Shown here piece by piece: positions 13,617 to 60,019 of a stretch of DNA of 64,000 nucleotides. Both the position numbers and the translations under genes were made by a program. The notes beneath the pieces were generated by a model. That model ran no database searches. It saw only the letters and a program-made list of their open reading frames with translations, and was not told where the DNA came from. How positions within the stretch are numbered: the first letter of the stretch is position 1; every line of letters starts with the position of its first letter. Where the stretch lies: contig MGJF01000002.1 in the NCBI GenBank assembly GCA_001794125.1, positions 37,751 to 101,750 of the forward strand, written 5' to 3'. Source of the stretch: Candidatus Yanofskybacteria bacterium RIFCSPHIGHO2_01_FULL_43_32 (GTDB lineage: Bacteria; Patescibacteriota; Minisyncoccia; 2-02-FULL-40-12; GWA2-44-9).

Positions 13617-13706
13617 TTTCCAATATCGACGCAATCAGCTGATGGACAAATCTAAACTTTTATGTTATCAAATTGAGAACACCGCACCTTGTCAATAAGG
13701 AACAAA

Positions 13707-16695: not shown

Positions 16696-16697
16696 AA

Positions 16698-16721
16698 TCG
16701 CCCTAAATAGGGCGACTTTTT
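16698..16721 (+). terminator. rho-independent terminator
   Basis: tcgccct-aaat-agggcga followed by cttttta. Confidence 0.6.
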
Positions 16722-16800
16722 ATTTAGTATTATTGAATTGCCAAAAGGTAAGTTTTTATGTATAACTATTGTCATGAACCTTAATAATTAGGGAGTAGCT

Positions 16801-18954: not shown

Positions 18955-18960
18955 AAATAT

Positions 18961-18986
18961 AAATCCCGCAATAGCGGGATTTTTGA
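18961..18986. terminator. bidirectional rho-independent terminator between convergent radical-SAM genes
   Basis: aaatcccgc-aata-gcgggattt flanked by A-run upstream and T-run downstream. Confidence 0.65.
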
Positions 18987-18993
18987 TTTGGTT

Positions 18994-20292: not shown

Positions 20293-20428
20293 GATAACCC
20301 TTTTTGTTTAAGAACTTTCGGCAAACGATACCATTTTTTGTTGCGCAGGTCAATTCCTAAATTGCTATAAAGTGACGGACTTATTTTTTATTTTGACATC
20401 AGCTGATATTTTCTGATACGGTTATTCT

Positions 20429-21517: not shown

Positions 21518-21594
21518 AGTTTTTGGTTATAACTCTGTTTGACACTTTTTGATACTTTTTGATACCATAAACTTAACTCGGAAAGAATTCGTTT

Positions 21595-29177: not shown

Positions 29178-29278
29178 AAAAGAAAGGTGTTTTTGCGCAA
29201 TAAATAAATAATTAGTCAATGATGACATCTATTAAAAAACATGTTAAAAATAAGCAGCTTTTTAATAAGGGCCCTGAC

Positions 29279-32184: not shown

Positions 32185-32190
32185 CACAGA

Positions 32191-34084: not shown

Positions 34085-34089
34085 GAAGA

Positions 34090-34938
34090 ATGATTATTAT
34101 AAGATTATCGTTGGGTATGGGCAATAATTTATTTCAATATGCGTTGGGCCGTCGTTTGGCACTGGAACGCGAGACGGAATTATATTTGGATTTTTCGGGT
34201 GAAAATGAGAATCGCCGTCGCTATGCTTTGGGTTATATTTCTAAATTCAACATGATCAAAGCTGTAGCGATCAAAAGAGAAGTTGGAAAAATAAAATTAT
34301 TAAACAAATTATTTTTCTTAAACCCCAACTACAGAAACGCTGTCATTAAAGAGAGTGGAAATACTTTTGATCAAACTGTTATTAATGCTCCTAAGGACGC
34401 CTATCTTATGGGTTACTGGCAGAGTGAAAGATATTTTAAACCCGCGGAGAGTATTATAAGACAAGACCTTACACTTAAAGAACCGCAAGGGGAAAAATAT
34501 CAAGATCTTTTGGATAGAATTACACTATCTAATTCCGTGTCAGTTCATATCCGGCGCGGTGATTATTTGTTGGAAAAAAATTTACGCTTATTTCACCCAT
34601 GCACATCTGATTATTATCTTAAAGCCGAAGCGTTAATATCAGAAAAAGTATCTTCGCCTGAGTTGTTTATTTTTTCTGACGATATTGAATGGGTAAAACA
34701 AAATATCCCGTTTCGTTTTCCGGCCACTTTTGTTTCTGATGGCAGCCTAGCTGACTATCAGGAGCTTATGTTGATGAGCGCATGCAAACACAATATTATT
34801 GCCAACAGCACTTTTAGCTGGTGGGGCGCCTGGCTTAACAATAATCCTCAAAAAATAGTAATTACCCCTAAAAAATGGTTTATTGACCCGGCCACGGACG
34901 AAAAGGATTTAATACCTCCGACATGGGTTAAGATATAA
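34090..34938 (+). CDS. GT11-family alpha-1,2-fucosyltransferase-like (fucosyl- or colitosyl-transferase)
   Basis: GMGNNLFQYALGRRLA (GxGNQxFQYA) and VSVHIRRGDY (HxRRGDY) GT11 motifs. Confidence 0.8.
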   Translation: MIIIRLSLGMGNNLFQYALGRRLALERETELYLDFSGENENRRRYALGYISKFNMIKAVAIKREVGKIKLLNKLFFLNPNYRNAVIKESGNTFDQTVINAPKDAYLMGYWQSERYFKPAESIIRQDLTLKEPQGEKYQDLLDRITLSNSVSVHIRRGDYLLEKNLRLFHPCTSDYYLKAEALISEKVSSPELFIFSDDIEWVKQNIPFRFPATFVSDGSLADYQELMLMSACKHNIIANSTFSWWGAWLNNNPQKIVITPKKWFIDPATDEKDLIPPTWVKI

Positions 34939-34964
34939 AATGAGCAGATTATAATATAAAAGCC

Positions 34965-35822
34965 ATGAACTATTCTCCCAAAAAAATAATCTCCAGAATA
35001 AAAAAGCGGTATCAAGAATACCAAAATTTTTGGCACTTAAGTGATGTTTTACAAAAAAACAACATCCTTCTTGATTCAAAAAAAGGTAAAACTTGCTTCA
35101 TTTTAGGTAATGGACCATCAATAAATAACCAGGACTTAACCTGCTTGGTCAATAAAGAAACCTTTGTAATGAATAATTTTTGGCGACATCCTCAGTATAA
35201 AATCATTCGTCCCAAGTATTTGTTGGCTGGTGATTTGGCAAGTTATGCTCAAAATAAAAGACCGGAAGTAAGGGGCGTGGATTTATCGGCCAGTAGTGTT
35301 GCCACATCACAGGTTCCCGAAACGAAGTTGTTTTTAAATAGCATAGCCAAAAAATATGTTGAAGAAAATAAATTGTTTTTACAAAATCAGATTTTTTATG
35401 TTCTGCAACAGGGTCACATGGATGAAAAGTTGCGTTTTAATATTGATCCAAGTAGGCCCATACCACTTCCTAAAAATTCTGCCATATTAGCTTTGATTAT
35501 TGCCGTACATATGGGTTTTGAAATCATTTATCTTCTTGGGTGTGAGCATGATTTTTTGGCTTATCCTGCCAAAAGGTCATATGCTGGTTTTGTGGGTTTT
35601 TATGATAAACCTAAAAAATCTTCTTCGGATATACCCGAAGTTCCTTTGTATCAAGAAGCTCGTTATGAAAATATGATAGAAAGCTGTTTGAAACTTTTCA
35701 GAAACTACAGACTATTGTCGGAAAAAATCGCTAAGCTGTATCCTAATGTCAAAATTTATAATGCAACCCCAAACAGCTTTTTGGACGTATTCCCAACTGT
35801 TAATTTTGAAGATATTAAATAA
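34965..35822 (+). CDS. GNGPS-motif glycosyltransferase, GT42 sialyltransferase (CstII)-like / Maf (DUF115)-like
   Basis: FILGNGPSINNQDL...FVMNNF...AILALIIAVHMGFEIIYLLGCEHDF parallels CstII AGNGPSL...FRCNQF...AVAIALGYKEIYLSGIDFY. Confidence 0.45.
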   Translation: MNYSPKKIISRIKKRYQEYQNFWHLSDVLQKNNILLDSKKGKTCFILGNGPSINNQDLTCLVNKETFVMNNFWRHPQYKIIRPKYLLAGDLASYAQNKRPEVRGVDLSASSVATSQVPETKLFLNSIAKKYVEENKLFLQNQIFYVLQQGHMDEKLRFNIDPSRPIPLPKNSAILALIIAVHMGFEIIYLLGCEHDFLAYPAKRSYAGFVGFYDKPKKSSSDIPEVPLYQEARYENMIESCLKLFRNYRLLSEKIAKLYPNVKIYNATPNSFLDVFPTVNFEDIK

Positions 35823-36796
35823 TGGAACCAAAAATCTCGGTTATAATGACGGCATATAATTCGTCTAAGCACATCGGCGAAGCGATTTTAAGTATTTTAA
35901 ATCAGACACTTGAGGAATTTGAGCTCATTGTTGTTGACGACTGTTCACTTGATGACACATCTGAAATCGTAAGACGATATGCTGATAAGGACCCGAGAGT
36001 GATTTTGTTAAAAAATACGGTCAACTTAAAACCTGCTCTTTCCAGAAATAAAGCACTAGAAATTGCGAGGGGTAAATATGTCGCCGTATTGGATTCTGAC
36101 GACGTTTCACTACCTAATCGTTTAAGAGAACAGTATGATTATCTTGAAAGAAATCAGGACGTAGTTTTGGTTGGTTGCGCTGCCGAAATCATTGATGATA
36201 ATGGAAAAATTCTGGGACGAAAATATTATCCTAAAGATTTTAAAGAAATTAAATTTGTCTTGCTTTTAAAGAACCCGTTTGTTCATTCGGGAATTTTGGG
36301 TAGAAAACAAGCTATGACAGAGTTTGGATATTCAAACGACCATCTTCACTCCGAAGATTTAAAGTTATATTCAAATCTTGTCAGTAAATACAAAATTACA
36401 AATCTGGACAACATCCTTATAAAATATCGCCAAAGCGCCGGTTCCGTTACACTGGAACCGGAAACCAGACAAATACAACTGGCTAACGCAAACAAAATCC
36501 ACCACGACCTGATTAATCAATATCTGTTCGCTTCACCTGTTAAAGTAAAGATTGCCATTGAAACTATCCATAAAATGAGACACGACTTGTTTTCTATTTT
36601 AAGCACGATAGTTTTCTGCCGGCGCCTAACCCTTTCTTATGTTGAAAAAGAGCAGCCAAATATCGAAACCCGCAAAACTATTTGGAGTATATATTCCAAA
36701 GAAAAAGAGATGCTTCTTGGTCAAATTTTCCGTGTTCATGTGCCAAAATTATATTCCGCCGCTAAAAAAACCTACCGAGTTTTATCTGGCAATTAA
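35822..36796 (+). CDS. GT2-family glycosyltransferase
   Basis: ISVIMTAYNSSKHIGEAILSILNQT...ELIVVDDCSLDDT, DSDD. Confidence 0.8.
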   Translation: MEPKISVIMTAYNSSKHIGEAILSILNQTLEEFELIVVDDCSLDDTSEIVRRYADKDPRVILLKNTVNLKPALSRNKALEIARGKYVAVLDSDDVSLPNRLREQYDYLERNQDVVLVGCAAEIIDDNGKILGRKYYPKDFKEIKFVLLLKNPFVHSGILGRKQAMTEFGYSNDHLHSEDLKLYSNLVSKYKITNLDNILIKYRQSAGSVTLEPETRQIQLANANKIHHDLINQYLFASPVKVKIAIETIHKMRHDLFSILSTIVFCRRLTLSYVEKEQPNIETRKTIWSIYSKEKEMLLGQIFRVHVPKLYSAAKKTYRVLSGN

Positions 36797-36799
36797 AAA

Positions 36800-38134
36800 G
36801 TGTATGCTGTTATTATGAATCTTAAGAAAAGGTTTCAATATTTTTTTAATCATAAGTTTGTTCGGCGGACGGCTACTTTGCAAATAGGAAGTTTTGGGGG
36901 GACAATTGTTCAGGCGGTGGTCGGCATACTTTTAGCCAGGCTTTTGCAGCCGGAGCTTTTGGGTATTTATTCTCTTGCTTTCGGATTAGCGGCTACAACT
37001 TCTTTGGTAATTGGCATGGGAATTCAGGAGGCGGTTTCAAGTTTACTGGGCAGATCTTACGCGCAAAAGGATAAAGCCGAGACAGAAAATATTCTTGGCT
37101 TTATGTTCAAGATAACTTTTTTTGCCGCCCTGATAGTGTTGGTTTTTAGTTTTTTTCTGCCGAACATAGCGGATAGATTATATGGTGATTCGGTTATTGG
37201 TATTTATGCTTCAATTATTGTTGTCGCGGTGATTCTGTCATCGTTTTTCTTTACTCTCGCGTACTCTGCTTTTCAGGTTACCGGCAGAATCAGATCCCTC
37301 ACATATTTAATCGTTATCGACCAATCATTGAGATCCGGCCTGTCTTTGGTTTTGGTTATGGCCGGTTTTGGAGTTTTAGGAGCGGTTAGCGGACACCTGG
37401 TCGGGGCTTTGATACTATTTATTTCCTCGGCATTGTTGTTTGTAAATTTAAAAATAAAGGATTCTGTTTTTCCGGATTTACGCCGGCTGATTATTAGCGC
37501 AAAGAGCATAAGTCTAAAAAAATATTTCGGTTTTACTTTCTGGGTCGCTTTGGACAGGAATATGGGCAACTTATTTATGGCTTTGCCGGTTATTCTTACC
37601 GGTATTTATGTTACTGTTTCCGAAGTTTCTTTTTTCAGACTAGCTTTCGGATATGTTAATCTTGCCTTAAGTTTGCTTGGTCCGGTATCGGTGCTGTTAA
37701 ATGTTGAATTTCCCAAGTTGCATATTGAAAACAAGGAAAAATTAGCTGAAAATTTCAAAAAAGTTTCTTTATATTCCCTTGCGCTTTCTATTTTTTTGAC
37801 TGTTACCGCGGTTGTTATTTCTCCCATAGCGTTCAAAATATTTTATGGAGAAAGTTTTTTGCCGAGTGTGCCTTATGTGGCCGGACTGATTGTTTATGGC
37901 GCTTTGTATGGTATCGGAGTGGGTTTGGGCCCGATGTGGCGGGCAATCAACAAGGTTAAGATTTCAATATTGATAAATTCTGTTATTCTTGGCATGGGTA
38001 TTCCACTGGGTCTATGGTTAATAAAGAGTTATGGACTTTGGGGGTCGGTTATTATGGTGACGGTGTGGTTTTCGGTTTCACATCTAATTTCTTTTATTTA
38101 CCTTATAAAAAAACTAAATATTAAAAATGGCTAA
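36800..38134 (+). CDS. Wzx-type oligosaccharide flippase (MOP superfamily)
   Basis: 444 aa with about 12 predicted TM helices, directly after the GT genes. Confidence 0.65.
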   Translation: MYAVIMNLKKRFQYFFNHKFVRRTATLQIGSFGGTIVQAVVGILLARLLQPELLGIYSLAFGLAATTSLVIGMGIQEAVSSLLGRSYAQKDKAETENILGFMFKITFFAALIVLVFSFFLPNIADRLYGDSVIGIYASIIVVAVILSSFFFTLAYSAFQVTGRIRSLTYLIVIDQSLRSGLSLVLVMAGFGVLGAVSGHLVGALILFISSALLFVNLKIKDSVFPDLRRLIISAKSISLKKYFGFTFWVALDRNMGNLFMALPVILTGIYVTVSEVSFFRLAFGYVNLALSLLGPVSVLLNVEFPKLHIENKEKLAENFKKVSLYSLALSIFLTVTAVVISPIAFKIFYGESFLPSVPYVAGLIVYGALYGIGVGLGPMWRAINKVKISILINSVILGMGIPLGLWLIKSYGLWGSVIMVTVWFSVSHLISFIYLIKKLNIKNG

Positions 38135-39269
38135 ACGGGAATATTTGTTAATAGGTATTGTTGCGGCGGTGATGCTGGCTTACTTTATCATAGCTACGCC
38201 AGTTATGAACGACGATGGATTTCACTATGAAGGATTTGCTGAATCACTGGCTCACGGCAAATTGGACTTCAAATCGTTTTACGGGTTTCAAGGTCTTTCT
38301 TTTTTTGCCGTTCCTATATTTTGGCTGACCCGTTCTCACGATTCAATTATTATAATGTCGGCAATATTTTCCTTGTTTTCTGTTCTGTTGGCTTACTTTA
38401 TCGGGAAAGAATTTTACGGAAACCGCCGAGCCGGCATTTATTTTTTAATTTTATTTTTGCTGACGCCTTATCCTTATACGACCATGATGCGGGGATTTCA
38501 GGAGGCGGCGCTTCTGTTCTTTATTCTCCTGATAATATACGGGAGTTTGAATAAAAAATTGTGGACCCCTGTGACGTGGGCAGTTGGTGGAATCGTAAAG
38601 CCATTTGCCATGGTCCTCTTTCCTTTGTTTATCAAAGATTTTTGGAATAATCCGTTTAATAAAACTCATGGCAGGAAAATCATTTGGCCGATAGTTGCCA
38701 TAGTTATCGGCGGTGCTTATTTGGGTGCAAGTTATTATCAAACCGGACACTTGATTAATAACGCAGCAATAAATTCATATCAGGGGAACTTTGATACGGG
38801 TAATCCACCGCCTTTGGCAGAAAGCTTTACCGTCGGAATTAAGGGATATTTAAGAGTTGCCGCCAACCTTCTCCTGTCTTTTAGAAAAATAATGATTTCT
38901 CCATTGGTAATTGTATTGGGCTTCCTTTCCCTGCTGTTTAACAAGGACTTAAAATTAAGAAAAGAAATAATTTTGGCCATTATTCTTAATTTTATATTGG
39001 TTGGCAGTCTAACATTTTCTTTTTCTAAATATCTTCTACCGATGACGGCGTTATTTGCCTTGGCTTCGGTTAGCTATCTTCTAAAACATAAATGGCTGAT
39101 GATTTTTGTGTTTGTTGATTCGTTGTTTGTGTTTTTGCCGATTTGGAATTATTTTGGTCATAACTATTGGTCGAATATTTATTTATATTTAACCCCTTTT
39201 TGGTTAGCGGCGGCATTGTTTATATATGAGCGATTACTCGCAAAGCATAGTTTTAATACCAACTCTTAA
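38127..39269 (+). CDS. polytopic membrane protein, putative Wzy polymerase or GT-C-fold glycosyltransferase
   Basis: 380 aa, multiple TM helices, position between flippase and polyprenyl-phosphate GT2. Confidence 0.4.
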   Translation: MAKREYLLIGIVAAVMLAYFIIATPVMNDDGFHYEGFAESLAHGKLDFKSFYGFQGLSFFAVPIFWLTRSHDSIIIMSAIFSLFSVLLAYFIGKEFYGNRRAGIYFLILFLLTPYPYTTMMRGFQEAALLFFILLIIYGSLNKKLWTPVTWAVGGIVKPFAMVLFPLFIKDFWNNPFNKTHGRKIIWPIVAIVIGGAYLGASYYQTGHLINNAAINSYQGNFDTGNPPPLAESFTVGIKGYLRVAANLLLSFRKIMISPLVIVLGFLSLLFNKDLKLRKEIILAIILNFILVGSLTFSFSKYLLPMTALFALASVSYLLKHKWLMIFVFVDSLFVFLPIWNYFGHNYWSNIYLYLTPFWLAAALFIYERLLAKHSFNTNS

Positions 39270-39936
39270 CGAGAGGGAGAATTTAAAAGATCTGATCCCT
39301 TCGATTTTTGGTTTAATGCCGGAGATTTCTGTTTTAGTCGTGGACGACAATTCTTCCGACGGTACGCGGGAATTGGTCGGGTTTATGAAGACAGGTTTTA
39401 AAAACCTTTTTCTTTTGGAAAGAAAAAATAACTTTGGTTATGGGCGTTCAAGCATCGACGGATTCAAGTGGATATTTGAAAGACCATATGACAATGTTGT
39501 GACAATGGACGCCGATTTTTCACATAATTTTAATGAAGTACCCGCCTTACTGGAAAAACTTAAAAACTCTGATGTTGCGATGGGCTCTCGGTATATAAGG
39601 GGAGGCGGAGTTAAAAATTGGAGTTTTTTCAGGAGAGTTTTAAGCAGGCTTGCTAATCTTTATGTAAAAATAATTTTAGGTCTTCCTGCTGCGGATGCTA
39701 CGTCTGGATTTAATGCTTACCGGGTGACTTCATTGAAAAAAATAAATTTAGACAAGATAGATTCAAACGGATACGCCTTCCTTGTGGAATTAAAATATCG
39801 GCTTTTCAGGGCTGGCTCTAAATTTATCGAACACCCAATTCTGTTCAGTGAGCGCAGGGAGGGGCAATCAAAAATGTCCGGCAAAATAATATGGGAATCA
39901 ATCAAGCTTCCTTGGAAACTGAAATTATTCAATTAG
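39226..39936 (+). CDS. polyprenyl-phosphate glycosyltransferase (GT2, Dpm1/ArnC/GtrB-like)
   Basis: [16 protein letters not shown]...[22 protein letters not shown]. Confidence 0.75.
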
Positions 39937-50996: not shown

Positions 50997-52005
50997 ACGA
51001 CAAATTATAGTTGCAGTATCAGGCGCGTTTGACCCGATTCATATCGGGCATATTCGGTTGATCAAAGAAGCCAAAAGATTAGGCGATAAGTTGGTGGTTA
51101 TTTTGAACAACGACAACTGGCTGTTAAATAAAAAGACCCAAGTTTTTATACACCAAAATGAACGCAAGGAGATATTGGAAGCGATTAAAGAAGTTGGCGA
51201 GGTGATTATCAGCAGTCATTCCGCAAATCCCAAAGACATGAGTGTTTCCAGAGAACTGTTTAAGATCAAGCCAGACATTTTTGTTAAAGGAGGCGATCGA
51301 AAAAGCAAGAAGGATATTCCCGAAGCCGAAGCGTGCAAAAAAATAGGATGCAGAATTGTTTTTAATATCGGCCATGGCGGAAATTTTAAATACAGCTCAT
51401 GGCTTTTGGCGAATTACATCAGGAGCTTAAACCGCATTAAACAAATTGATGTAAACAAAACCACGGCTAAAATAAGACAAGTCTTTAAGAAATCTAAAAC
51501 CCCGGTTTCTTTAAACATTAAATCGGCATTAAGCGAGATTATTTTGAACGTCATGAACCGGCGCCGGGCTTTCGGTTTGTTCGTTATTTTGGGCTGGCAC
51601 AATAAGTGGAATAATTTTACGGATGTTCCCGACAGCAGTCAGGATATTTATAAAAAACACCATGTAAATTTGAAGGACCTCATTAAAGAAGGCAAGCATT
51701 ACAAAATTGAATCTACCCTTGATTTTGACGGGGCAATTTTAATTGATAAAAACGGCAACATTTTAGATTCGGGAATTATCATTGAAGGTTTGCGGCCCAA
51801 AGTGATTGCCGATAAAATTAACCCCGGCAAATTTAAAGACCTTTCCCAGCAATTCGGGTTTAAGGGCAAGGTCCATTCGCGCCACCTATCGGCGATTGCC
51901 GCCTCATATATTTTCAAAGGAACAACGGTATTTACCGTTTCTGAAGAGAATGATTCTTTTCACATTTTCGAGAACGGTAAAATAGCTTACCAATACGGCA
52001 AATAA
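50986..52005 (+). CDS. HxGH nucleotidyltransferase (TagD/RfaE-domain-II-like cytidylyl/adenylyl-transferase) fused to a C-terminal diadenylate-cyclase (DAC)-like domain
   Basis: N-terminal [30 protein letters not shown] and [10 protein letters not shown] (TagD [28 protein letters not shown]; RfaE LVKGGDYK); C-terminal [14 protein letters not shown]...[12 protein letters not shown]...[21 protein letters not shown] parallels the DAC HDGAVII...GTRHRAALGISE...VSEETGxIS. Confidence 0.55.
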
Positions 52006-53598
52006 CTAAATACCCGGCACAAGCGTAGACCCGGTCATCTCTTTCGGTTTTTCCAGCCCGAACAGGTCAAGCACCGAAGGGGCGATATCGAGCAGTGTTC
52101 CTATCGGCTTTTCTGTGGCGAGAGATTCAAGCGACTTGCCGCTGCCGTTGGCGCCCAGAAATCTTTGAGCGACGAATACGACCGGTACCGGATGCGTGGA
52201 ATGCTGGGTGTCCTCGCCTCCGGTCATCGGATCAATTAATTCTTCGGCGTTTCCGTGGTCGGCGGTGATGACCACGGCGTTATCGGGGTCTTTAACAATC
52301 GTTTCGACTATCTGTCTGATAGAGTCGTCAAGAATCTTGAGCCCCTTTACCGTCGCTTCCGTATCTCCTGTGTGGGCAATAATATCGGCATTGGCAAAAT
52401 TTATAACGAACAATTTTTTATCCTCTTCTGCCCGCGCCAGAACTTCCCGGACAATCCCGGCGGCGGACATCTCCGGATGTTCCATGTAGTTACTGCCGGT
52501 CATCTTTCTTGATTCGACTATGACCCGTTCCTCGCCTTCGTACGGGCCTATCTTTCCGCCGTTGAAGAAGTTGGAGACATGGGCTTCTTTTTCTTTTTCG
52601 GCTATCCTGTATTGCTTCCAGTCCTGTTTGCTTATCACCTCGCCGAGAATATTGGGCGTTTCAAGCGGTTCATAGGCAACGCTAACATTAAAGTCGTCGG
52701 AGTAGCGCGTCATAGTGGCTACGAAAAGATTTTGCGGCACGTTTTTTCTTTTGAATCCGGAGAAGTCCGGAGAAACGAACGAAGATACGATCTGCTTCAT
52801 TCTGTCGTTTCGGAAATTAAAGAAAACGAGCGCGTCATTGCTTCCGATGGTTGCCACCGGCCGGACTGCATCATTTTTTGTATCCACTATCACCGCCGGC
52901 TCTATTTCGTGGTCGGAAATATTTTTTGCATAATTTTGCCGGAAATAATCTTCGGGATCGGTGACAGGGGATCCTTCGCCGTCAACCATGGCGCACCAGG
53001 CCTTTTCGGTCAGCGGCCAGTTCAGGAGCCGGTCCATTCCATATACGCGTCCGATCACGGAGGCAATGCGGCCTCCGGTATCGGCTATGACATTTTTAAC
53101 TTTTGCCAAACTGATTATACCGTCTCTCGGTCCGCTGTCCTGTCCGTCGGTTATCATGTGCACGAAAATTTCTTTGAAGTTTTCTGCGGCGGCAAAACGG
53201 AGAAGCGCGAACAGGTGGTCTTCGTGGGAGTGAATGCCGCCCGGGCTTACGCATCCGATTAAGTGGAGCTTGGATCTGTTTTTCAAGCAATGCTCGACGG
53301 CGGCTTTAAAAAACGGATGTTTGAAGAACTGGCCGCTTGCGATGTTCTGATTTATTCTCGCCCAGTCCTGAACGATAATCCGTCCGGAGCCGATGGCGGA
53401 ATGGCCGACTTCGCTGTTGCCGTATTTGCCCCAAGGAAGACCGACGATAAGTCCGGAGGATACGACGGAATACGAAGGATACCCGGCCGTAAGGCTGTTT
53501 AAATATTTCATTTCCGCAGTTGTAACGGCGTTGCCCGGTCCGGAGAGATCCAATCCGAATCCGTCTAAAATTATTAGGAATACTTTTTTGAAACTCAT
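52006..53598 (-). CDS. gpmI: 2,3-bisphosphoglycerate-independent phosphoglycerate mutase
   Basis: MSFKKVFLIILDGFGL N-terminus and full-length iPGM architecture. Confidence 0.9.
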   Translation of the reverse strand: MSFKKVFLIILDGFGLDLSGPGNAVTTAEMKYLNSLTAGYPSYSVVSSGLIVGLPWGKYGNSEVGHSAIGSGRIIVQDWARINQNIASGQFFKHPFFKAAVEHCLKNRSKLHLIGCVSPGGIHSHEDHLFALLRFAAAENFKEIFVHMITDGQDSGPRDGIISLAKVKNVIADTGGRIASVIGRVYGMDRLLNWPLTEKAWCAMVDGEGSPVTDPEDYFRQNYAKNISDHEIEPAVIVDTKNDAVRPVATIGSNDALVFFNFRNDRMKQIVSSFVSPDFSGFKRKNVPQNLFVATMTRYSDDFNVSVAYEPLETPNILGEVISKQDWKQYRIAEKEKEAHVSNFFNGGKIGPYEGEERVIVESRKMTGSNYMEHPEMSAAGIVREVLARAEEDKKLFVINFANADIIAHTGDTEATVKGLKILDDSIRQIVETIVKDPDNAVVITADHGNAEELIDPMTGGEDTQHSTHPVPVVFVAQRFLGANGSGKSLESLATEKPIGTLLDIAPSVLDLFGLEKPKEMTGSTLVPGI

Positions 53599-53804
53599 AT
53601 TATTTGTCGTTCGTGTTTATTTTAACACGCAGAGCTTTGTTTTAAAATGACCAGACGACTTGTAGTCACAGGATTTTGTTTCAAATTTCTTAATAATTCT
53701 ACATAAAGGTTCATAAAAAAGAGTAGTTTGCGGTTCTTTGGATTTGAACCGATTCTTGCGTTTTTTCAATCTCAACTTATTACTTTCAGCTTCGGTACGG
53801 AGCA

Positions 53805-53813
53805 TGGTATAAT
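53805..53813 (+). promoter_or_regulatory. extended -10 promoter element TGGTATAAT, followed by GTGAGGT RBS
   Basis: 16 nt upstream of ATG 53829. Confidence 0.45.
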
Positions 53814-53828
53814 AAAAAGTGAGGTATA

Positions 53829-56222
53829 ATGCCCAAAAACTATCAACCGAATTTTTTAAAGGAGAACGATAAAAACAAAGGCGCTCTAATTAAAAAGGCG
53901 GGCCGTTATCTTATAATTCTGTTGGCGGTTTTATCAATGCTGTCTTTTGTTGCCGTGGCCGGTTCGCTTACTCCTTCCGCTTCGCCTGCCAGCACGATGA
54001 AGACATTGCAGGAGATATACGATTCCATCGCCGGAACATTTGATTCATCTTCCATTACCGCAAGCCAGAACGGTTCTCTCATCCAGGGTTTAAAATATAT
54101 TTCCAATAATCTTTTCTGGGCCTCTTCATCCGACGATATTTACAACATCAACACGGGCAACGTCGGCATCGGGACGACTTCGCCCGATTCTGTTTTGGAA
54201 GTTGCTTCCGCATCGGCTAAATTCATCCTCCGCTCTACCGGCTCCGCCGCATCCGTTTCCATTGACTTCCAGCCTGCCGGAGGAGCGTCATCCAGCAACC
54301 AAAGCAAATTTACCATCAGAGCAGGAGGCTTGGCTTCAACTCTGGGCGAGCGTCTGGAATTTCTTAACGGCAATATGACCAGCTTGATGACCATTGCAAG
54401 CTCCGGCAATATTGGTATCGGGACAACGGCGCCCGCCTCGCTTCTTACCGTTCAGGGCCGGGGAGAATTCTATGGCACGGCTTCGGCTTCTTATCTCCTG
54501 ACCGGCAACACTCTTCAAGTAGGAGGCTATTCATCTGCCGCATACTCAAGATTCGGGATAGGCGCAACAAGTGAATCTCATTACATCGCCGGGGCAAATG
54601 ACCTTTTTGTCACCGAAGACTTTGAAGTTGATGGCTCCGTCTCATTTGCCGGACCGGCATCAATATCCAATACGCTTTATGTATCCACGCTTGGGAAAAC
54701 AGGCAACGTCGGAATCGGTGTATCAAACCCAACAGCGTTGCTGACACTCAAGTCGACCGGAGCTCTCGGCTGGGACGACAGCTCGGGAACGGCGGATGTG
54801 AAATTGGTGCGTGACGGGTCTAAGCAACTGGCAATGCGAAACGGCACAAACGACCAGCAGTTCAGCGTTTATGGTACGTATACCAGCGGTACAAACTATC
54901 GCCGTTTGCGCATAAACGTAGCTAGTACGAATGTGAATATTTATTCGGAGTCTGCAACTCAAAGCGCGGCGGATATGAACATCGGCACCTTAGGCAGTTC
55001 TGTGTTGCAGTTTGTCACCAATAGCAGCAACCGATGGCATATAGATGCGAGTGGCAACTTTGAGGCAAGTACGGATAACAGCGTGGATATCGGCGCCAAT
55101 CAAGCCAACCGTCCAAAAACCGGCTATTTTGGCACGTCGCTCGGTGTCGTTTCCGGAGGCACCCTCAATACCACTTTTGAGGTCGGGGGTACCGCATCTG
55201 TATCGGGCAATGCATTCTTTGCAAGCAATGCTTCAATATCCGGGGCGCTGGAAATTGTAACCTTGAACCCGGCGGCAGCCACTCATGTCTGCCGGGATGC
55301 CGGAAATGTTTTATCAACCTGTTCCTCGGCTGCAGAATGGGCGCCGGCTTTGCCTGATAATGATATTGAAGAAGGAGATATTGTGTCAATTGACTTTGAG
55401 ACTCCTAATCCTTATGGCGACGAGCACAGCCCGTTTGTTATCAAAAAATCATCGACTTCTTACGAAGGAGGAATAATCGGCTATGTTACCGACTCTAAAT
55501 TAGGCGGTGACGGGCCTAAATTAAACGATAATTACCGTCCGGTGGCAGTAGTGGGTTATTGGCCGGTCAAAGTCAATTTAGAAAACGGCCCCATCAAAAG
55601 GGGCGACCATATCACCTCTTCTGCTACGCCTGGTGTAGGCATGAAAGCGACAACACCGGGGATGATTGTGGGCATTGCCTTGGATGAGGCGAATAATATG
55701 CCTGACGGCGCTTCGTTTGTAAAGATAAGGATATTTACCAATCTAAGCTATTGGGCACCCAGCGTGGATTCGATTCTGGATTCTGCTTCTGTTGACCCGG
55801 CGTTTGCGCTCCAAACGACAACCGGCAGCCGCTTCACCCTTTTAATGCTTTTTGGCTTCATTCTTGAACAACTCAAGCAAGTCGGAGTCATAATCCACGA
55901 TGGTCTTGTCCAGGCCAACATTATCAAAGCCAACCAGCAATTCTGCGTCGGCAACGCCTGTGTTACGGAGGACCAATTCAAACAGCTTCTTGAAAATGCC
56001 GGACTGATGCAAACAAATTCTCCGTTACCGGAGCCGATCCCTTCGCCCTCGGCAACACCAACCCCTGAAGCTATGCCGGAAGCGACTCCAGAGGAAACTC
56101 CAACCCCGACTTCTGAACCGGCTTCGGAAGAGACGCCTGTTCCCGTCCCTGAACCCGTTTCTGAACCAACTCCCGAACCAACTCCCGAACCAACTCCAGC
56201 CCCGGATTCATCCGGCCAATAA
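53829..56222 (+). CDS. large secreted/cell-surface protein with N-terminal signal-anchor, Ser/Thr/Gly/Ala-rich beta-rich body and C-terminal Pro/Thr/Glu-rich tail
   Basis: TM ILLAVLSMLSFVAVAG then the conserved module GSLTPSASPASTMKTLQEIYD...; the C-terminus has TPEPTPEPTPAP repeats. Confidence 0.55.
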   Translation: MPKNYQPNFLKENDKNKGALIKKAGRYLIILLAVLSMLSFVAVAGSLTPSASPASTMKTLQEIYDSIAGTFDSSSITASQNGSLIQGLKYISNNLFWASSSDDIYNINTGNVGIGTTSPDSVLEVASASAKFILRSTGSAASVSIDFQPAGGASSSNQSKFTIRAGGLASTLGERLEFLNGNMTSLMTIASSGNIGIGTTAPASLLTVQGRGEFYGTASASYLLTGNTLQVGGYSSAAYSRFGIGATSESHYIAGANDLFVTEDFEVDGSVSFAGPASISNTLYVSTLGKTGNVGIGVSNPTALLTLKSTGALGWDDSSGTADVKLVRDGSKQLAMRNGTNDQQFSVYGTYTSGTNYRRLRINVASTNVNIYSESATQSAADMNIGTLGSSVLQFVTNSSNRWHIDASGNFEASTDNSVDIGANQANRPKTGYFGTSLGVVSGGTLNTTFEVGGTASVSGNAFFASNASISGALEIVTLNPAAATHVCRDAGNVLSTCSSAAEWAPALPDNDIEEGDIVSIDFETPNPYGDEHSPFVIKKSSTSYEGGIIGYVTDSKLGGDGPKLNDNYRPVAVVGYWPVKVNLENGPIKRGDHITSSATPGVGMKATTPGMIVGIALDEANNMPDGASFVKIRIFTNLSYWAPSVDSILDSASVDPAFALQTTTGSRFTLLMLFGFILEQLKQVGVIIHDGLVQANIIKANQQFCVGNACVTEDQFKQLLENAGLMQTNSPLPEPIPSPSATPTPEAMPEATPEETPTPTSEPASEETPVPVPEPVSEPTPEPTPEPTPAPDSSGQ
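56163..56198 (+). repeat. 3 x 12-bp tandem repeat (gaaccaactccc) encoding (EPTP)n
   Basis: Perfect or near-perfect tandem copies in the C-terminal tail of the surface protein. Confidence 0.8.
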
Positions 56223-56225
56223 TCC

Positions 56226-56507
56226 ATGGTTAATTTCCAAACCGGCAAAATAAAGAAAATAGGAAGAGAGGCGCTGATAATTATTATCGGCATCTTTGCC
56301 GTCATATATATAATAAGAACAGTCCAGGCCGGAAGCCTGACTCCGTCGGCGTCTCCGGCTTCAACCCTGAAAACTTTGCAGGAAGTTTATGATCCTTTGG
56401 TTGGCACATCTCACGATTCTTCTTCAGTCGTTGCAGGCCAGAATGGAGATGCCCTGCAGATAATGAAATGCATAATAAGCAAACTAAATACCGGATCGTG
56501 TCCATAG
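56226..56507 (+). CDS. short ORF encoding a second copy of the N-terminal signal-anchor/GSLTPSASPAST module (possible truncated paralog or 5' part of a frameshifted gene)
   Basis: IIIIGIFAVIYII TM then GSLTPSASPASTLKTLQEVYDP...DSSSVVAGQNG paralleling residues 35-90 of the upstream protein. Confidence 0.3.
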   Translation: MVNFQTGKIKKIGREALIIIIGIFAVIYIIRTVQAGSLTPSASPASTLKTLQEVYDPLVGTSHDSSSVVAGQNGDALQIMKCIISKLNTGSCP

Positions 56508-58306
56508 TTGCTCTTCAGCGAGCGATTCTTCTGGCGGCTGTCGCGGCGTATCTTGCGACGCCTTTTGGCGCCGGAGCCTCATCCGAAGACGGCACAATAA
56601 ATTCAACGTTTAAATATGCCTGGGGAGAAAACATCGGCTGGATAAATTTCGGTACATCCGAGGGCAATGTTCATATAACCGATTCAGGGATGACCGGCTA
56701 TGCCTGGGGAGAGAATGTCGGCTGGATATCGCTTAACTGTTCCAATACAAGTTCGTGCGGCACGGTGGACTATGGCGTTTCAAATGACAGTCACGGAAAT
56801 CTTACCGGCTATGCCTGGGGCGAGAATACAGGCTGGATATCATTTGATAATGTATTTAGCAGTGTGAATATAAGCCAGACCGGGGTGTTCAGCGCTTATG
56901 CCTGGGGCGAGAATACAGGCTGGATATCATTTAACTGTTCCAATACAAGTTCGTGCGGCACGGTGGACTATGGACTCAAGACAGATTATATCCCCAGCCC
57001 GTCAGGGGGGGGAGGATTTGGTGATCCGCCATCTCCGAGCAGTACGCCGGCTCCTTCACCGACACCAGAAGAATCTCCGACCCCAAGTCCGTCGGTCTCA
57101 CCCAGTCCGGAAATAACTCCTGAACCATCAGCAGAGCCATCCGTCACGCCGCCTCCGGCCATGCCGGAAGCTCCGCCTCCCGATCAAGCCCCTCCGGCTC
57201 CGCCTACTTCTTCCGGTCCGCCATTCATATCGGTGCCGGGAATCGGCGTCTTGCCTCAAGGAGTGCAGGATGTGATAAACCAAACAGTGTTGAATGTTGT
57301 TGAGGCTGTCCAGACAGTCACTAAAGTGACCGTAGAGGTAGCCAAGGTTGTTGCCCCGGTTGTTGAAAAATCGGCGGAACCAGTCACTCAAGTTACGACT
57401 GCCACGACGGGAGTCTCAAGCGCGGTAGCGGTTGCGCCTATGGCCAACTCGGCCAGTAACGCCGGCAATATACTTGAATTCTTACGCCAGAATCTCTGGG
57501 TGGCGGTGGGTCTTAAACGCAGAAGAAAACCATGGGGCACCGTTTATAACGGGAAAACGAAACAGCCGATACCTTTTGCTAAAGTTGAACTTTTAAACCC
57601 AAGTTCCCGTCTTTTGGAATCCCAGGTCACCGATATGAACGGGCGCTATGGTTTTTTGGTCACCCCCGAGTCCACGGAACAAAAAGTCGTTGAGATCCAA
57701 ATCCAGGCCCGTAAAGAAGAATACGTTTTCCCGGCGCAAGGCATTATTCCGCCTAACGATACGATGCTATACGGCAATGTTTATGTCGGCGGCATTGCCA
57801 AAGTTGATGTTGAAGCTCTGGCGGGTTTTGATATTCCGATGAGCAAGCTTACGCCAGACAAATTATTGGATACGGCCGTTAAAAAACCGCTTGCCAAGCT
57901 CAACAACAGCATTACGATCCTGTTAAATTTCGGTTTTTATTTGGGATTGGTCATGGCGCCTCTGTCTTATATTCTGACTCCGAGCAATTTTAATCTGGCT
58001 ATACTGGCGGGTTTCTTTGTTGTAAACATCCCCCGATTCGCCGGCTTGACTCAAAGGCAATTTGGTATGGTGGTAGATTCTTCTACAAGCGTTCCGATAC
58101 CCTTTGCCTTGATAACTCTGAACGACCGCGAAGGGAAGCGGGTCGGATTTACGGTATCCGATGAGAGGGGCCGTTATTTCCTGCTCGTGCCTAAAGGACA
58201 CTATTCAATCCTGGCTTATACGCCGGCGACAATAATTCCGACCAGGACTTTCAGTCGGGAATTTAAAACCAGAAAAGGCTGGATAAAAGAAGAGCTCCGG
58301 TTATAA
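56468..58306 (+). CDS. secreted/membrane protein with 4-5 tandem ~40-aa YAWGENxGWIxF(NCSNTSSCGTVDYG) repeats, Pro-rich linker, CarboxypepD_reg-like domains and C-terminal TM helices
   Basis: Own AxA signal-peptide-like segment (AAVAAYLATPFGAGA|SS); repeats visible in protein and DNA. Confidence 0.5.
   Translation: MHNKQTKYRIVSIVALQRAILLAAVAAYLATPFGAGASSEDGTINSTFKYAWGENIGWINFGTSEGNVHITDSGMTGYAWGENVGWISLNCSNTSSCGTVDYGVSNDSHGNLTGYAWGENTGWISFDNVFSSVNISQTGVFSAYAWGENTGWISFNCSNTSSCGTVDYGLKTDYIPSPSGGGGFGDPPSPSSTPAPSPTPEESPTPSPSVSPSPEITPEPSAEPSVTPPPAMPEAPPPDQAPPAPPTSSGPPFISVPGIGVLPQGVQDVINQTVLNVVEAVQTVTKVTVEVAKVVAPVVEKSAEPVTQVTTATTGVSSAVAVAPMANSASNAGNILEFLRQNLWVAVGLKRRRKPWGTVYNGKTKQPIPFAKVELLNPSSRLLESQVTDMNGRYGFLVTPESTEQKVVEIQIQARKEEYVFPAQGIIPPNDTMLYGNVYVGGIAKVDVEALAGFDIPMSKLTPDKLLDTAVKKPLAKLNNSITILLNFGFYLGLVMAPLSYILTPSNFNLAILAGFFVVNIPRFAGLTQRQFGMVVDSSTSVPIPFALITLNDREGKRVGFTVSDERGRYFLLVPKGHYSILAYTPATIIPTRTFSREFKTRKGWIKEELRL
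56618..56982 (+). repeat. array of degenerate ~100-bp intragenic direct repeats; two ~80-bp copies (about 56696-56776 and 56894-56982) share a long identical core (ccaatacaagttcgtgcggcacggtggactatgg)
   Basis: Direct comparison of DNA strings. Confidence 0.75.
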
Positions 58307-58350
58307 TTGGTTTGTATAATCGATAACTTTAATTTTTCAGCGCCTGAAAA

Positions 58351-58387
58351 GGCGTTTTTAATTTGACTGTTTAACTTTTTGTTGTAG
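58351..58387 (+). repeat. direct repeat copy 1 (ggcgtttttaatttgactgtttaactttttgttgtag), includes a TTGACT -35-like box
   Basis: Re-occurs at 59946-59984 with two single-T indels. Confidence 0.8.
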
Positions 58388-58482
58388 TTAAGAAAATTTT
58401 TACTTAAAATAAGTACTTGACTTGTCGTAAAATTTAGGTATTCTAAGATTCAGCAATTTACCAATTAAAACCGGAGCTGTGA

Positions 58483-59733
58483 GTGAGAAGAATCCCCATA
58501 CTTGTCTTTTTGTGTGGCTTATCTATCGCTTGCGACAGCAACAATGGTCCGAGCTTCAGCCCAACGGCGCCAAGCACGAGCATCAGCGTCGAGGACCCGG
58601 CAACTTTACAGACCGTAACCAAGACCGGTCCGGCAAGCGTGAAACCGCTGAACGCGCGCGAAATCTGCGGCAACCCCAACGACTGGGAGCCGGATGATGC
58701 AGCGCTTCAGACCTGCTTGGACAAGGGGGGGAATATTGATCTTGAACCGGGTTTGCCGGGGTATATCGTGAACGGCCTCAATGGAGATGTAAACCGGGGG
58801 CTTCATCTGATCCGTTCGGGAACAGCTCTCGGGTCTTCCGGAGGAGCGAACAGAGCGCGTATCATTGCGGGAAGGGACTTGTTTGCCATAATCCTTCAGA
58901 CACAGGGCAGTGTAAGCAACTTCAGCATTCGGAATATTTCCTTTGACGGCATGGTTGATGAGATGGCCGAAGACGGCCCATACCGGCGAAGGCGTGGTGA
59001 GTGCATTGACGGCAGGGCGCCGGGAAATATTTTTCTTCAAGGCAATGGTTTCCAGTTCAAGGATAACGAATCCCAGCACGCAATGTGCGGAAGCGGCCTT
59101 GGTTTGATGGGTAGCGGCTATGATGTTCAGAATAATTACGTCTCTTACAACGGGCGGGATAAGAATTCCGGAGCGCCGGGAGCGCCATGGTCAGACGGGA
59201 TGACTGTTCTTTCCTGCGAACGCGGCTATATTGCACACAACGTTCTGGTGGATAATACGGATATTGACCTGGTGCTTGGCGGCGGGCGGGGATGCATTGT
59301 GGAGTTAAATACCATCGCCCACTTCGGCAATTATGCTTTCGCCGGGCTGAGCATCGGAAATTTCTCCGGCGGCGACCACACCGGTTCGGAATTCCGTGGA
59401 AATACGGTCTATTCCGGCGTTCCGGACAGATTGTCCATGGGAATTCTTGTCGGAAGCCATCCATGGTCAACCCAGGTCTGGGTTCACAATGCCGGCAGAG
59501 TTGTCGGAAACACTTCCTACGGTAACGTGCTCAACTTGATAGTTGAAGGCGTCCGGGGAGGAGAGGTAGTCGGCAACAATATTTATAATCCCCAGGGAAG
59601 CGATAGCGGATGCGGCAAACACAGCATGAATTATGTCGTTAACCCTGCCCATGTAACGAACACGAAACTGCAGGATGGCTGGACGCCACTCCAATTCGAT
59701 GAATGGGTTTGTGTTCCGGTAGCTGGCGAATAG
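58483..59733 (+). CDS. lipoprotein with right-handed parallel beta-helix (pectate-lyase-fold) repeats, GTG start
   Basis: Lipobox LVFLCGLSIAC; NVLVDNTDIDLVLGGGRGCIVELNTIAHFGNYAFAGLSIGNF...GNTVYSG beta-helix-like repeats; markedly higher GC than neighbours. Confidence 0.5.
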   Translation: MRRIPILVFLCGLSIACDSNNGPSFSPTAPSTSISVEDPATLQTVTKTGPASVKPLNAREICGNPNDWEPDDAALQTCLDKGGNIDLEPGLPGYIVNGLNGDVNRGLHLIRSGTALGSSGGANRARIIAGRDLFAIILQTQGSVSNFSIRNISFDGMVDEMAEDGPYRRRRGECIDGRAPGNIFLQGNGFQFKDNESQHAMCGSGLGLMGSGYDVQNNYVSYNGRDKNSGAPGAPWSDGMTVLSCERGYIAHNVLVDNTDIDLVLGGGRGCIVELNTIAHFGNYAFAGLSIGNFSGGDHTGSEFRGNTVYSGVPDRLSMGILVGSHPWSTQVWVHNAGRVVGNTSYGNVLNLIVEGVRGGEVVGNNIYNPQGSDSGCGKHSMNYVVNPAHVTNTKLQDGWTPLQFDEWVCVPVAGE

Positions 59734-59945
59734 CCAGCTTTTTAATTAGCTTTTGGAAATACTTATTGTATGTTTAAAAACATGAAAAAAATACTTTTGT
59801 TCTTAGCTATGTGAGAGACAGTTCAAGATAAGAATATTAGAATAGGAAACGAGGTTATCAAGGAAGTTATGAAATGGGCTCCGGTCTGCGGTTGGCCCAA
59901 GATTTACAGAGACATCAATTCTTGAACTGAAACGAAACGTCTAAG

Positions 59946-59984
59946 GGCGTTTTTTAATTTGACTGTTTAACTTTTTTGTTGTAG
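59946..59984 (+). repeat. direct repeat copy 2 (ggcgttttttaatttgactgtttaacttttttgttgtag)
   Basis: See copy 1; precedes pepA. Confidence 0.8.
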
Positions 59985-60019
59985 ATTTTGACAATCTCGA
60001 TCTTTGAAAAAGGGATACC

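Follow-up and report, generated by a model that had tools for sequence, protein, structure and literature searches.

Gene Layout of the Locus

The window analyzed here, a stretch of 64 kb taken at its full length, encodes a 612-aa surface protein, whose gene is called the barrel gene after the predicted fold of its repeat module. The genes around it and the parts of its product are as follows.

53829..56222, + strand: partner gene, 797-aa secreted tail-fibre-like protein (PHROG tail-fibre matches, 2e-08)
56226..56507, + strand: partner mini-gene, 93 aa, with signal peptide, tag and about 40 aa (called as a gene in GCA_001794695.1)
56468..58306, + strand: barrel gene, 612-aa surface protein (ORF list; OGN01624.1 and identical entries, Candidatus Yanofskybacteria)
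56468..56578, + strand: signal peptide, aa 1-37, hydrophobic core aa 10-37, ending in GAGA before SS (hydropathy windows)
56579..56995, + strand: Trp-rich module with the four repeats, aa 38-176, for which one compact, all-beta, barrel-like domain is predicted
56996..57217, + strand: Gly/Pro/Ser/Thr-rich stalk, aa ~177-250 (translation)
57530..57787, + strand: first CarboxypepD_reg-like beta-sandwich, aa ~355-440 (PF13620, 2 stretches)
57908..58051, + strand: two adjacent hydrophobic helices, aa ~481-528 (Kyte-Doolittle windows of at least 1.5)
58064..58267, + strand: second CarboxypepD_reg domain, aa 533-~600 (PF13620 best stretch aa 533-583, E 4.7e-13)
58483..59733, + strand: 416-aa protein encoded downstream, lipoprotein-like at its N-terminus and weakly similar to right-handed beta-helices (Pfam Beta_helix, E 0.17)

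The 612-aa protein thus runs from signal peptide through repeat module, Pro-rich stalk and CarboxypepD_reg to a transmembrane hairpin and a second CarboxypepD_reg. Translation from a GTG at codon 11 instead would give 602 aa, and 602-aa variants occur among the database entries. The signal peptide is probably cleaved, and conservation in the family alignment begins immediately past it. The C-terminal half belongs to CarboxypepD_reg (PF13620, 49.7 bits over two stretches, cut-off 32.3), with a bMG3 match at aa 363-409 inside the first stretch, and the hydrophobic helices at aa ~481-502 and aa ~505-528 probably form a membrane-anchoring hairpin. In this respect the original prediction, which placed a Pro-rich linker, CarboxypepD_reg-like sandwiches and membrane helices 3' of the repeats, was accurate (PF13620 E 4.7e-13; hydropathy). 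The likeness to CarboxypepD_reg membrane proteins of Patescibacteria is confined to the C-terminal half; this membership covers the anchor half and is uninformative on the repeat module.

The downstream 416-aa protein carries the UniRef name 'Right handed beta helix domain-containing protein'. It did not recur in the neighbourhood clustering of barrel loci, so that we treat it as a neighbour only, and its link to the barrel module is uncertain. The window also carries a sugar/polysaccharide cluster of ~39 kb.

Four Repeats Predicted to Form One Domain

The motif YAWGENxGWIx(F/L) was found in the ORF as predicted, in exactly four copies rather than four to five, and at uneven start-to-start spacings of 84, 111 and 87 nt (28, 37 and 29 aa) in place of a uniform period of ~40 aa.

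56615..56698, + strand: repeat 1, short, YAWGENIGWINF plus loop, no Cys
56699..56809, + strand: repeat 2, long, YAWGENVGWISL plus NCSNTSSCGTVDYG, Cys codons at 56738 and 56756
56810..56896, + strand: repeat 3, short, YAWGENTGWISF, no Cys, first 36 nt the same as those of repeat 4
56897..56986, + strand: repeat 4, long, first 36 nt the same as repeat 3, next 41 nt (NCSNTSSCGTVDYG) the same as repeat 2

The Cys-containing segment, previously ascribed to the repeats in general, is present only in repeats 2 and 4; repeats 1 and 3 are shorter and contain no Cys. The two Cys do not vary across a family alignment of 120 sequences. As 2,146 database proteins show this motif at this spacing, the repeats are not a chance pattern. 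Taken together, there is strong support for the four YAWGENxGW(I/L)x(F/L) units being structural repeats of one extracellular domain of ~135 aa and not a variable array. In the predicted model each unit is a strand-turn-strand hairpin (..GYAWGE / NxG / GWIxF) to which one more short strand is added, an extra loop between the two invariant Cys (C-x5-C) is present in units 2 and 4, and the four together form a compact, all-beta, barrel-like fold.

The view that the repeats belong to no recognized family held. Pfam, NCBIfam and PHROGs placed no model on the repeat region of the 612-aa protein, and searches of PDB sequences with the protein and with a family profile (E<=10) gave no match. Among Pfam models the sole candidate was ChW, at threshold level in 2 of 81 relatives. 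Full-text literature searches with the repeat motif and with the tag motif described below returned no relevant paper.

Distribution and Anchors of the Barrel Family

Relatives of the barrel fall into 8,951 clusters at 50% identity, mostly from Patescibacteria. None was found in the 2.9 M viral contigs of IMG/VR, and on this ground a phage origin of the barrel was rejected despite the tail-fibre-like PHROG matches of the 797-aa partner. There is strong support for the barrel domain as the mark of a large, cellular, mainly patescibacterial family that lacks a curated model and is distinct from ChW.

The domain directly follows the signal peptide in nearly all of the 83 family proteins. Behind it the anchors differ (CarboxypepD_reg in 33, PG_binding_1 in 9 and SLH in 5 of 81 relatives); the full C-terminal architecture is common to 12 relatives and lies on a separate downstream gene in two (also at locus L007). 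By these domain counts, the anchor half appears interchangeable across the family, being a transmembrane hairpin, PG_binding_1 or SLH. Because dedicated wall anchors (PG_binding_1, SLH) co-occur with the module, these architectures argue that the module is a functional head rather than itself a wall anchor.

Linkage with Genes for Tagged Secreted Proteins

Both partner genes upstream of the barrel gene encode a short conserved tag.

53958..54020, + strand: N-terminal tag AGSLTPSASPASTMKTLQEIY of the 797-aa partner, aa 44-64 (motif family; signal-peptidase-type site)
56328..56390, + strand: tag AGSLTPSASPASTLKTLQEVY of the 93-aa mini-protein

The tag has the consensus GSLTPSAxPAxTMxTLxxIY and starts right after an (A/V)-x-A signal-peptidase-type site. 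Since Ala stands at position -1 in 48 of 53 sequences and Ala or Val at position -3 in 39 of 53, after a hydrophobic stretch, the tag is the predicted mature N-terminus. The C-terminal heads behind it vary, being tail-fibre-like in the window and C-type-lectin/Lcl_C, beta-helix or LVIVD elsewhere. The last ~40 nt of the 93-aa mini-gene overlap the 5' end of the barrel gene, and equivalent mini-ORFs are present at four other loci (L011, L025, L028 and L044). Beta-helix proteins in planctomycete loci are another class of tag-bearing partner. A conserved link between barrel and right-handed beta-helix, considered from the neighbours at L009, L010 and in the window, was rejected, as the 416-aa protein of the window is dissimilar to the others (E 0.27) and carries no tag. 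Among the family proteins examined, none combined tag and barrel in one chain. The peptide form of the tag, GSLTPSASPASTMKTLQEIYDSI, is a candidate binding partner of barrel aa 38-176.

Of 83 barrel loci, 47 have a tag-bearing ORF; these ORFs number 60 and without exception share the strand of the barrel gene. The distance to the barrel gene is at most 700 nt in 36 loci, with gaps of -39 to +31 nt being common. Among loci with full flanks, 34 of 48 carry a tag ORF, while ~30% of well-flanked loci have no detectable one within 6 kb. The reverse search, a metagenome scan seeded with an alignment of 8 tag sequences, found a same-strand barrel gene at 12 of 13 loci with at least 4 kb downstream, a small set with some redundancy (L103/L104; several loci of a single project) and a bias to window-like tag variants. 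In the 64-kb window there are only two tag ORFs, both directly upstream of the barrel gene. Some of this neighbourhood signal could be mere clustering of surface-protein genes. The reciprocal, same-strand linkage of the barrel gene with genes for tagged secreted proteins is new.

Genes of diversity-generating retroelements (DGRs) are nearby in about a quarter of loci, where their parts adjoin tag-bearing Lcl_C partners and do not lie inside the barrel gene. No RT or Avd was found in the 64-kb window, so no DGR was assigned there and the barrel protein was not classed as a DGR target.

A Possible Dock for Tagged Proteins, and Its Alternatives

Our best guess is that the barrel acts as a cell-anchored receptor, or dock, which would hold non-covalently the conserved N-terminal tag of secreted adhesin-like proteins. 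The barrel sits at the tip of the Pro-rich stalk, on a protein probably held in the membrane by the two-helix hairpin flanked by CarboxypepD_reg sandwiches, and docking would display the tagged proteins on a cell without outer membrane. Taken whole, the explanation by a single four-repeat barrel domain, its partner linkage and a dock for tagged proteins is the best we can offer, tentatively and at somewhat below an even chance. The proposed logic resembles that of cohesin and dockerin, with an anchored receptor, interchangeable TM, SLH or PG-binding anchors and a short tag on varied secreted proteins encoded nearby. The resemblance is a functional analogy only, as there is no relation in sequence or fold, and the tag, an N-terminal stretch of ~20 aa, is no Ca-binding dockerin.

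The barrel might instead be a lectin-like or cell-wall/carbohydrate-binding head, which through its Trp-rich surface and E-N turns recognizes a glycan, either of the host cell or of the bacterium's own envelope, and whose tagged neighbours are merely co-expressed surface proteins. An extracellular, Trp-rich, disulfide-stabilized domain at the tip of a stalk would suit such a role, it has a short (E/Q)N-x-GW hairpin motif in common with ChW, a surface-anchoring repeat, and the sugar/polysaccharide cluster lies in the same window. However, no lectin or CBM matched the domain significantly in sequence or fold, the conserved aromatics may be the core of the barrel, and relatives bearing PG_binding_1 or SLH need no second wall anchor. 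Such a head would also leave the reciprocal, same-strand and often overlapping linkage with tag genes unexplained, and we consider it a possible but rather unlikely alternative to the dock.

A third reading draws on known barrels. Foldseek with the module model gave no significant match in PDB; the nearest structural neighbours are the soluble 8-stranded barrels hemophilin (7re4), HpuA (5ee2) and TbpB/LbpB/fHbp/NHBA, together with YceI and avidin-type barrels. By analogy with hemophilin/HpuA/TbpB, YceI and avidins, the module could hold a small hydrophobic or cofactor-like ligand inside, for nutrient or lipid capture at the surface. But structure-based identity to these neighbours is 15% or less with no ligand-binding residues in common, and those barrels lack the four sequence repeats, the YAWGENxGW motif and the Cys loops, all of which the module has. 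They are Slam-dependent lipoproteins of diderms and not of Patescibacteria. Furthermore, 8-stranded membrane barrels and barrels designed de novo reach similar scores, and the structural match thus reflects generic topology. About 12 conserved aromatic side chains from the four repeats would probably fill the interior, and the operon partners are adhesin-like and not transporters. An internal ligand is accordingly improbable.

The repeats could also be a divergent branch of ChW (Clostridial hydrophobic W, PF07538 / SMART SM00728), a non-covalent surface anchor whose ligand is not known (PMC5817068, PMC6700490), and hence a described family. A precomputed PF07538 label stands on about one third of the top family matches, and two of the 81 relatives have ChW matches at E<=0.001 above the Pfam gathering score of 22 bits (P0022, 27.3 bits; P0063, 24.1 bits), covering only profile positions 3-23 of 35. 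Both kinds of repeat are extracellular, GW-containing beta repeats in small groups with an (E/Q)-N-x-G-W hairpin turn and a later G-T, and hhalign brings the (E/Q)NxGW motifs of three consecutive repeats into register with ChW. Against this, neither the repeat region nor the full 612-aa protein matched ChW at E<=10, while genuine ChW proteins reach 290 bits for 6 repeats, and hhalign against genuine ChW gave a probability of 2.3% for the domain and 7.7% for a single repeat, in which only ENiGWIS aligned. The anatomy also differs: the ChW unit is ~46 aa long (Y..HVQNIGWQ..V..G..AGT.G...R.EAI.I.L) and comes in triplets, whereas the module has units of 28/37/29 aa, four per domain, with Cys-x5-Cys loops and without the R-x-E-A strand. 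The module's predicted fold is not the ChW fold. Pfam score, profile-profile comparison, repeat anatomy and predicted fold thus led us to reject ChW membership, and descent from this family, largely refuted by these comparisons, is very improbable.

Finally, the original prediction took near-identical DNA over 80-100 bp as a sign of recent expansion, with possible variation in repeat number. The 36-nt repeat cores are 75-100% identical, and full identity is confined to two tracts, 36/36 nt between repeats 3 and 4 and 41/41 nt in the Cys-loop segment of repeats 2 and 4 (92% over 77 nt). As repeat 4 matches repeat 3 over its first 36 nt and repeat 2 over the 41 nt that follow, these tracts look like two short intragenic gene-conversion events, with repeat 4 a chimera of a repeat 3 head and a repeat 2 tail. 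Orthologues keep the short-long-short-long layout at identical spacing even where the repeat DNA has diverged, with 22-29/36 and 23-28/42 nt identical where this gene has 36/36 and 41/41, and a related four-repeat layout occurs in other phyla, which speaks against recent expansion. Nor was repeat-number variation seen, as the exact 612-aa protein is present on 24 independent contigs and the differences within its 90% cluster are limited to start-codon call or truncation. A recently expanded, length-variable array (a contingency or phase-variation locus) is hardly tenable despite the locally identical tracts, given that Tandem Repeats Finder reported no array at the repeats (54-62 kb), the units are unequal in length, the same four persist in orthologues and on all 24 contigs, and gain or loss of a unit would be expected to disrupt a closed four-repeat fold.

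Implications for Patescibacteria

Much of bacterial diversity belongs to Patescibacteria (CPR), which live attached to host cells and whose attachment proteins are mostly unannotated. The barrel is a domain family of about 9,000 clusters (50% identity) outside every curated library, with a confident fold prediction. Linked to it is a second uncurated element, the conserved N-terminal tag on adhesin-like proteins, some of them beside diversity-generating retroelements. Even if docking is wrong, barrel and tag merit family models, through which thousands of 'hypothetical proteins' would become interpretable. If the dock-and-tag reading is true, it offers a testable model of how host-binding proteins, hypervariable ones included, are displayed. 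The wider proposal, that the barrel and the GSLTPSAxPAxTMxTLxxIY tag constitute an undescribed two-part surface-display system widespread in Patescibacteria and occurring also in Planctomycetota, Acidobacteriota, Desulfobacterota and Nitrospirota, is doubtful enough to be offered as speculation. If it were correct, the barrel, anchored in membrane or wall, would capture the mature N-terminus of secreted adhesins (tail-fibre-like, beta-helix, C-type lectin), and would be a device by which episymbionts without an outer membrane mount and exchange their host-binding proteins.

A four-repeat extracellular domain and its anchors

The region 56600-57000 lies within the barrel gene, whose Trp-rich domain (aa 38-176) is here called the module; two neighbours encode secreted partners that carry a conserved N-terminal segment, the tag.

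Barrel gene and adjacent genes in the window
53829..56222, + strand: partner, 797-aa protein with the tag and PHROG tail-fibre matches
56226..56507, + strand: partner, 93-aa ORF with the tag, overlapping the start of the barrel gene by ~40 nt
56468..58306, + strand: barrel gene, 612-aa ORF, containing the region 56600-57000
58483..59733, + strand: 416-aa protein with a lipoprotein-like N-terminus (…LCGLSIAC/DS) and weak right-handed beta-helix similarity

The 612-aa translation contains, in order, the motifs YAWGENIGWINF, YAWGENVGWISL, YAWGENTGWISF and again YAWGENTGWISF. The 36-nt repeat cores start at 56615, 56699, 56810 and 56897 (start-to-start distances 84, 111 and 87 nt); the copy number is thus four rather than the four to five of the original prediction, and the actual spacing of 28/37/29 aa replaces a uniform period of ~40 aa. 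The Cys segment NCSNTSSCGTVDYG, attributed to the repeats in general, was confirmed for copies 2 and 4 only, copies 1 and 3 being short and Cys-free. Tandem Repeats Finder reported no array at the repeats. The protein begins with a signal-like segment (hydropathy), and the features predicted 3' of the repeats were recovered: a Gly/Pro/Ser/Thr-rich stretch corresponding to the Pro-rich linker, CarboxypepD_reg (Pfam, E = 4.7e-13, two stretches), and two adjacent hydrophobic helices (aa ~481-528, hydropathy) between both CarboxypepD_reg stretches. An identical protein occurs on 24 contigs (including GCA_001794695.1); the Candidatus Yanofskybacteria entries name it either hypothetical or 'carboxypeptidase regulatory-like domain-containing'.

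When 1.84 billion representatives clustered at 50% identity were searched with a profile, 8,951 relatives were identified at E<=1e-3, of which 6,306 pass E<=1e-10 and 1,239 pass E<=1e-30, and at least 570 loci in GTDB species representatives encode a barrel relative. The best 80 of these loci are mostly from Patescibacteria (Yanofsky-, Pacei-, Peri-, Nomura-, Moran-, Taylorbacteria and others), together with Anaerohalosphaeraceae/Pirellulales, Acidobacteriota, Desulfobacterales, Nitrospirae and Chloroflexi. No barrel relative was found in 2.9 million viral contigs.

The module directly follows the signal peptide in almost every one of 83 family proteins. Among loci encoding such relatives (L-numbers), the seeming exceptions L017 and L061 are ORF-extension artefacts, which leaves L042 as the one outlier, where a 1,466-aa ORF has the module at its C-terminal end. 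The domains C-terminal to the module vary (81 relatives: CarboxypepD_reg in 33, PG_binding_1 in 9, SLH in 5, and Ig-like domains or nothing in the remainder). The full C-terminal architecture of the window protein is common to 12 proteins and forms a separate downstream gene in two loci; in L007, the gene of a barrel-only protein precedes that of a CarboxypepD_reg protein. Given the position next to the signal peptide and the varied C-terminal parts, the module is the distal head of proteins whose membrane or wall anchors are interchangeable, and this interchangeability is strongly supported. It argues against a wall-anchoring role of the module itself, and we consider it rather unlikely that the barrel is a lectin or wall binder in its own right. 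In 17 patescibacterial loci (e.g., L079 4250..4618) a single-pass membrane protein of ~122 aa lies directly 3' of the barrel gene; it has no Pfam match and is absent from the window.

Linkage to genes of tag-bearing secreted proteins

Clustering revealed that the dominant neighbour family of the barrel gene has a hydrophobic N-terminus followed by AGSLTPSAsPAaTmYTLxdIY. Counted with an HMM of this segment, tag ORFs are present in 47 of 83 barrel loci (34 of the 48 having at least 2 kb on both sides), and the 60 ORFs counted all share the strand of the barrel gene. The tag ORF is within 700 nt of the barrel gene in 36 loci, gaps of -39 to +31 nt being frequent. When metagenome contigs were seeded with the tag alone as a reverse test, the barrel gene was recovered in 16 of 32 loci, and in 12 of the 13 whose downstream sequence reaches 4 kb or more; tag and barrel gene share a strand in every case. 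This reciprocal operon link between the two gene families is well supported, and no protein combining tag and barrel was found.

In the window, both tag ORFs are directly upstream of the barrel gene, with no other copies in the 64 kb. The 93-aa ORF has a signal peptide of its own, after which it corresponds only to the first ~55 mature residues of the 797-aa protein (tag plus 'SSxxAxxNGxxLQxxKC'), and equivalent mini-ORFs directly precede the barrel gene in L011, L025, L028 and L044. Such a mini-protein may act as a cap, a competitor or an adaptor. The tag starts directly after a signal-peptidase-I-type site (Ala at -1 in 48/53, Ala or Val at -3 in 39/53) behind a hydrophobic stretch, which makes it the predicted N-terminus of the mature protein. 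The regions after it vary, including tail-fibre-like, Lcl_C (C-type lectin fold), LVIVD propeller and right-handed beta-helix parts. In 21 of 84 loci (including L007 1852..3849, L030 2986..3351 and L067 1275..2351), components of diversity-generating retroelements (RVT_1 reverse transcriptase, bAvd) are encoded no more than 6 kb from the barrel gene, often beside tag-bearing Lcl_C proteins; none were found in the window. In a planctomycete locus (L088 4152..4823), a tag protein of ~220 aa stands directly upstream of the barrel gene, behind a tag protein of ~448 aa, and shows sub-threshold similarity to TssD/Hcp1 of the T6SS tube (27.7 bits, cut-off 58.9). Likewise, the planctomycete locus L076 has a 217-aa tag ORF 19 nt upstream of the barrel gene.

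Predicted fold

In an AlphaFold2 model built from an alignment of 120 family members, residues 38-176 form one compact all-beta body (mean pLDDT 92.4, pTM 0.85). Each unit is modelled as a strand (..GYAWGE), a tight turn (N-x-G), a strand (GWIxF), a loop and a short strand (VDYGV), and the long units have an extra loop between two cysteines, both invariant across the alignment. That the four repeats build a single extracellular domain is strongly supported, and we read the model as a barrel-like fold assembled from four hairpin repeats and without a closely related solved structure. Its structural neighbours are the TbpB, NHBA and fHbp barrels, OmpA-like and de novo designed barrels, YceI and avidins, on which ~95 of 139 residues overlay at ~2.6 A with identity of at most 15%; Foldseek with the module model gave no significant match (best E 0.23). 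A small-ligand barrel resembling these neighbours appears improbable.

Comparison with ChW repeats

The repeats of the window protein matched nothing in Pfam, NCBIfam, PHROGs or PDB sequence searches, and a literature text search did not find the motif in any paper. The sole lead was the Clostridial hydrophobic W repeat (ChW, PF07538), a precomputed label on about a third of the top homologues. Two homologues reach 27.3 and 24.1 bits (cut-off 22) over profile positions 3-23 of 35 only, where ENIGW...CGT aligns with ChW QNIGW...AGT. Genuine ChW proteins were fetched from a phage collection by tblastn with a ChW consensus, and checked by Pfam (290 bits for six repeats); 93 ChW-triplet proteins were gathered for comparison. 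The hhalign probability was 2.3% at the domain level and 7.7% for a single repeat, the latter over seven columns only (ENiGWIS), and 2 of 81 relatives matched ChW at E<=0.001. The ChW unit is ~46 aa and occurs in triplets, whereas the module unit is 28-37 aa with four per domain; the module lacks the ChW strand R-x-E-A-I-x-I-x-L and has Cys loops, the likeness being a short N-x-G-W hairpin motif. ChW membership was rejected on the hhalign values and the unit anatomy, the fold being compared indirectly, via PDB neighbours; a divergent ChW is very improbable. The original view of an unrecognised repeat family has withstood a serious attempt at refutation. According to the review literature, the ligand of ChW is not known and its structure is not solved (PMC5817068). 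In Lactococcus, a phage endolysin C-terminus acts as a non-covalent surface anchor, with a ChW assignment by manual alignment only, as Pfam searches recognised no domain (PMC6700490).

Expansion versus gene conversion

A search with the repeat region matched 2,146 proteins. Of the best 120, 65 have four copies of the motif and 41 have three, at fixed spacings, commonly 29/37/37 or the window's 28/37/29. The latter layout is shared by the orthologues L011, L012, L044, L015 and L007, where the repeat DNA has diverged: heads of repeats 3 and 4 are identical at 22-29 of 36 nt, versus 36/36 in the window, and tails of repeats 2 and 4 at 23-28 of 42 nt, versus 41/41. From these two identities, repeat 4 is a chimera of the repeat 3 head and the repeat 2 tail, as two short intragenic gene-conversion tracts would be expected to produce. 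The recent expansion once drawn from the near-identical repeats falls with the shared four-repeat layout, and since the proteins clustered at 90% identity vary by no more than start-codon call (602 vs 612 aa) or truncation, a contingency repeat (a variable tandem array) is hardly credible.

Genomic surroundings

GC content is 0.48-0.51 at 52000..60000, against 0.36-0.44 in most of the window; this stretch spans the fibre-like, barrel and beta-helix genes, and may reflect Pro/Ala/Gly-rich linkers or a different origin. The 416-aa beta-helix protein has no tag and does not recur beside barrel genes elsewhere. On the ANAN16 contig of another assembly of the same organism (L004, 562..1449 and 12016..13280), its gene is called as two ORFs (244 and 177 aa), suggestive of a frameshift or stop variant, and an rve integrase gene stands in place of the genes upstream of secA. 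Same-strand genes over ~39 kb (~300..39300, +) have the appearance of a sugar-modification/polysaccharide cluster, including split transketolase-like pairs (2926..4703, 6509..8387), an E1 dehydrogenase component, two DegT aminotransferases, a 717-aa radical-SAM protein, a GFO/IDH/MocA oxidoreductase and a Wzx-type flippase. A 905-aa ORF (21595..24312, +) is an unusual fusion of a pyruvate-kinase barrel domain, PUA_2, ATP-sulfurylase and APS kinase, which suggests PAPS supply for sulfation.

Proposed role of the module

The module represents a new family of domains, which belongs to a broad and known category, that of extracellular binding domains built from repeats. We propose that the barrel would be an anchored receptor for the conserved N-terminal tag. 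The whole package of four-repeat domain, interchangeable anchors, operon link and receptor role is put forward tentatively, at a little under an even chance, and the step of direct barrel-tag binding, taken alone, is doubtful. The barrel family is probably one half of a two-part surface module, in which the barrel, by holding the tags, would display variable adhesin-like proteins at the surface of a cell that lacks an outer membrane.
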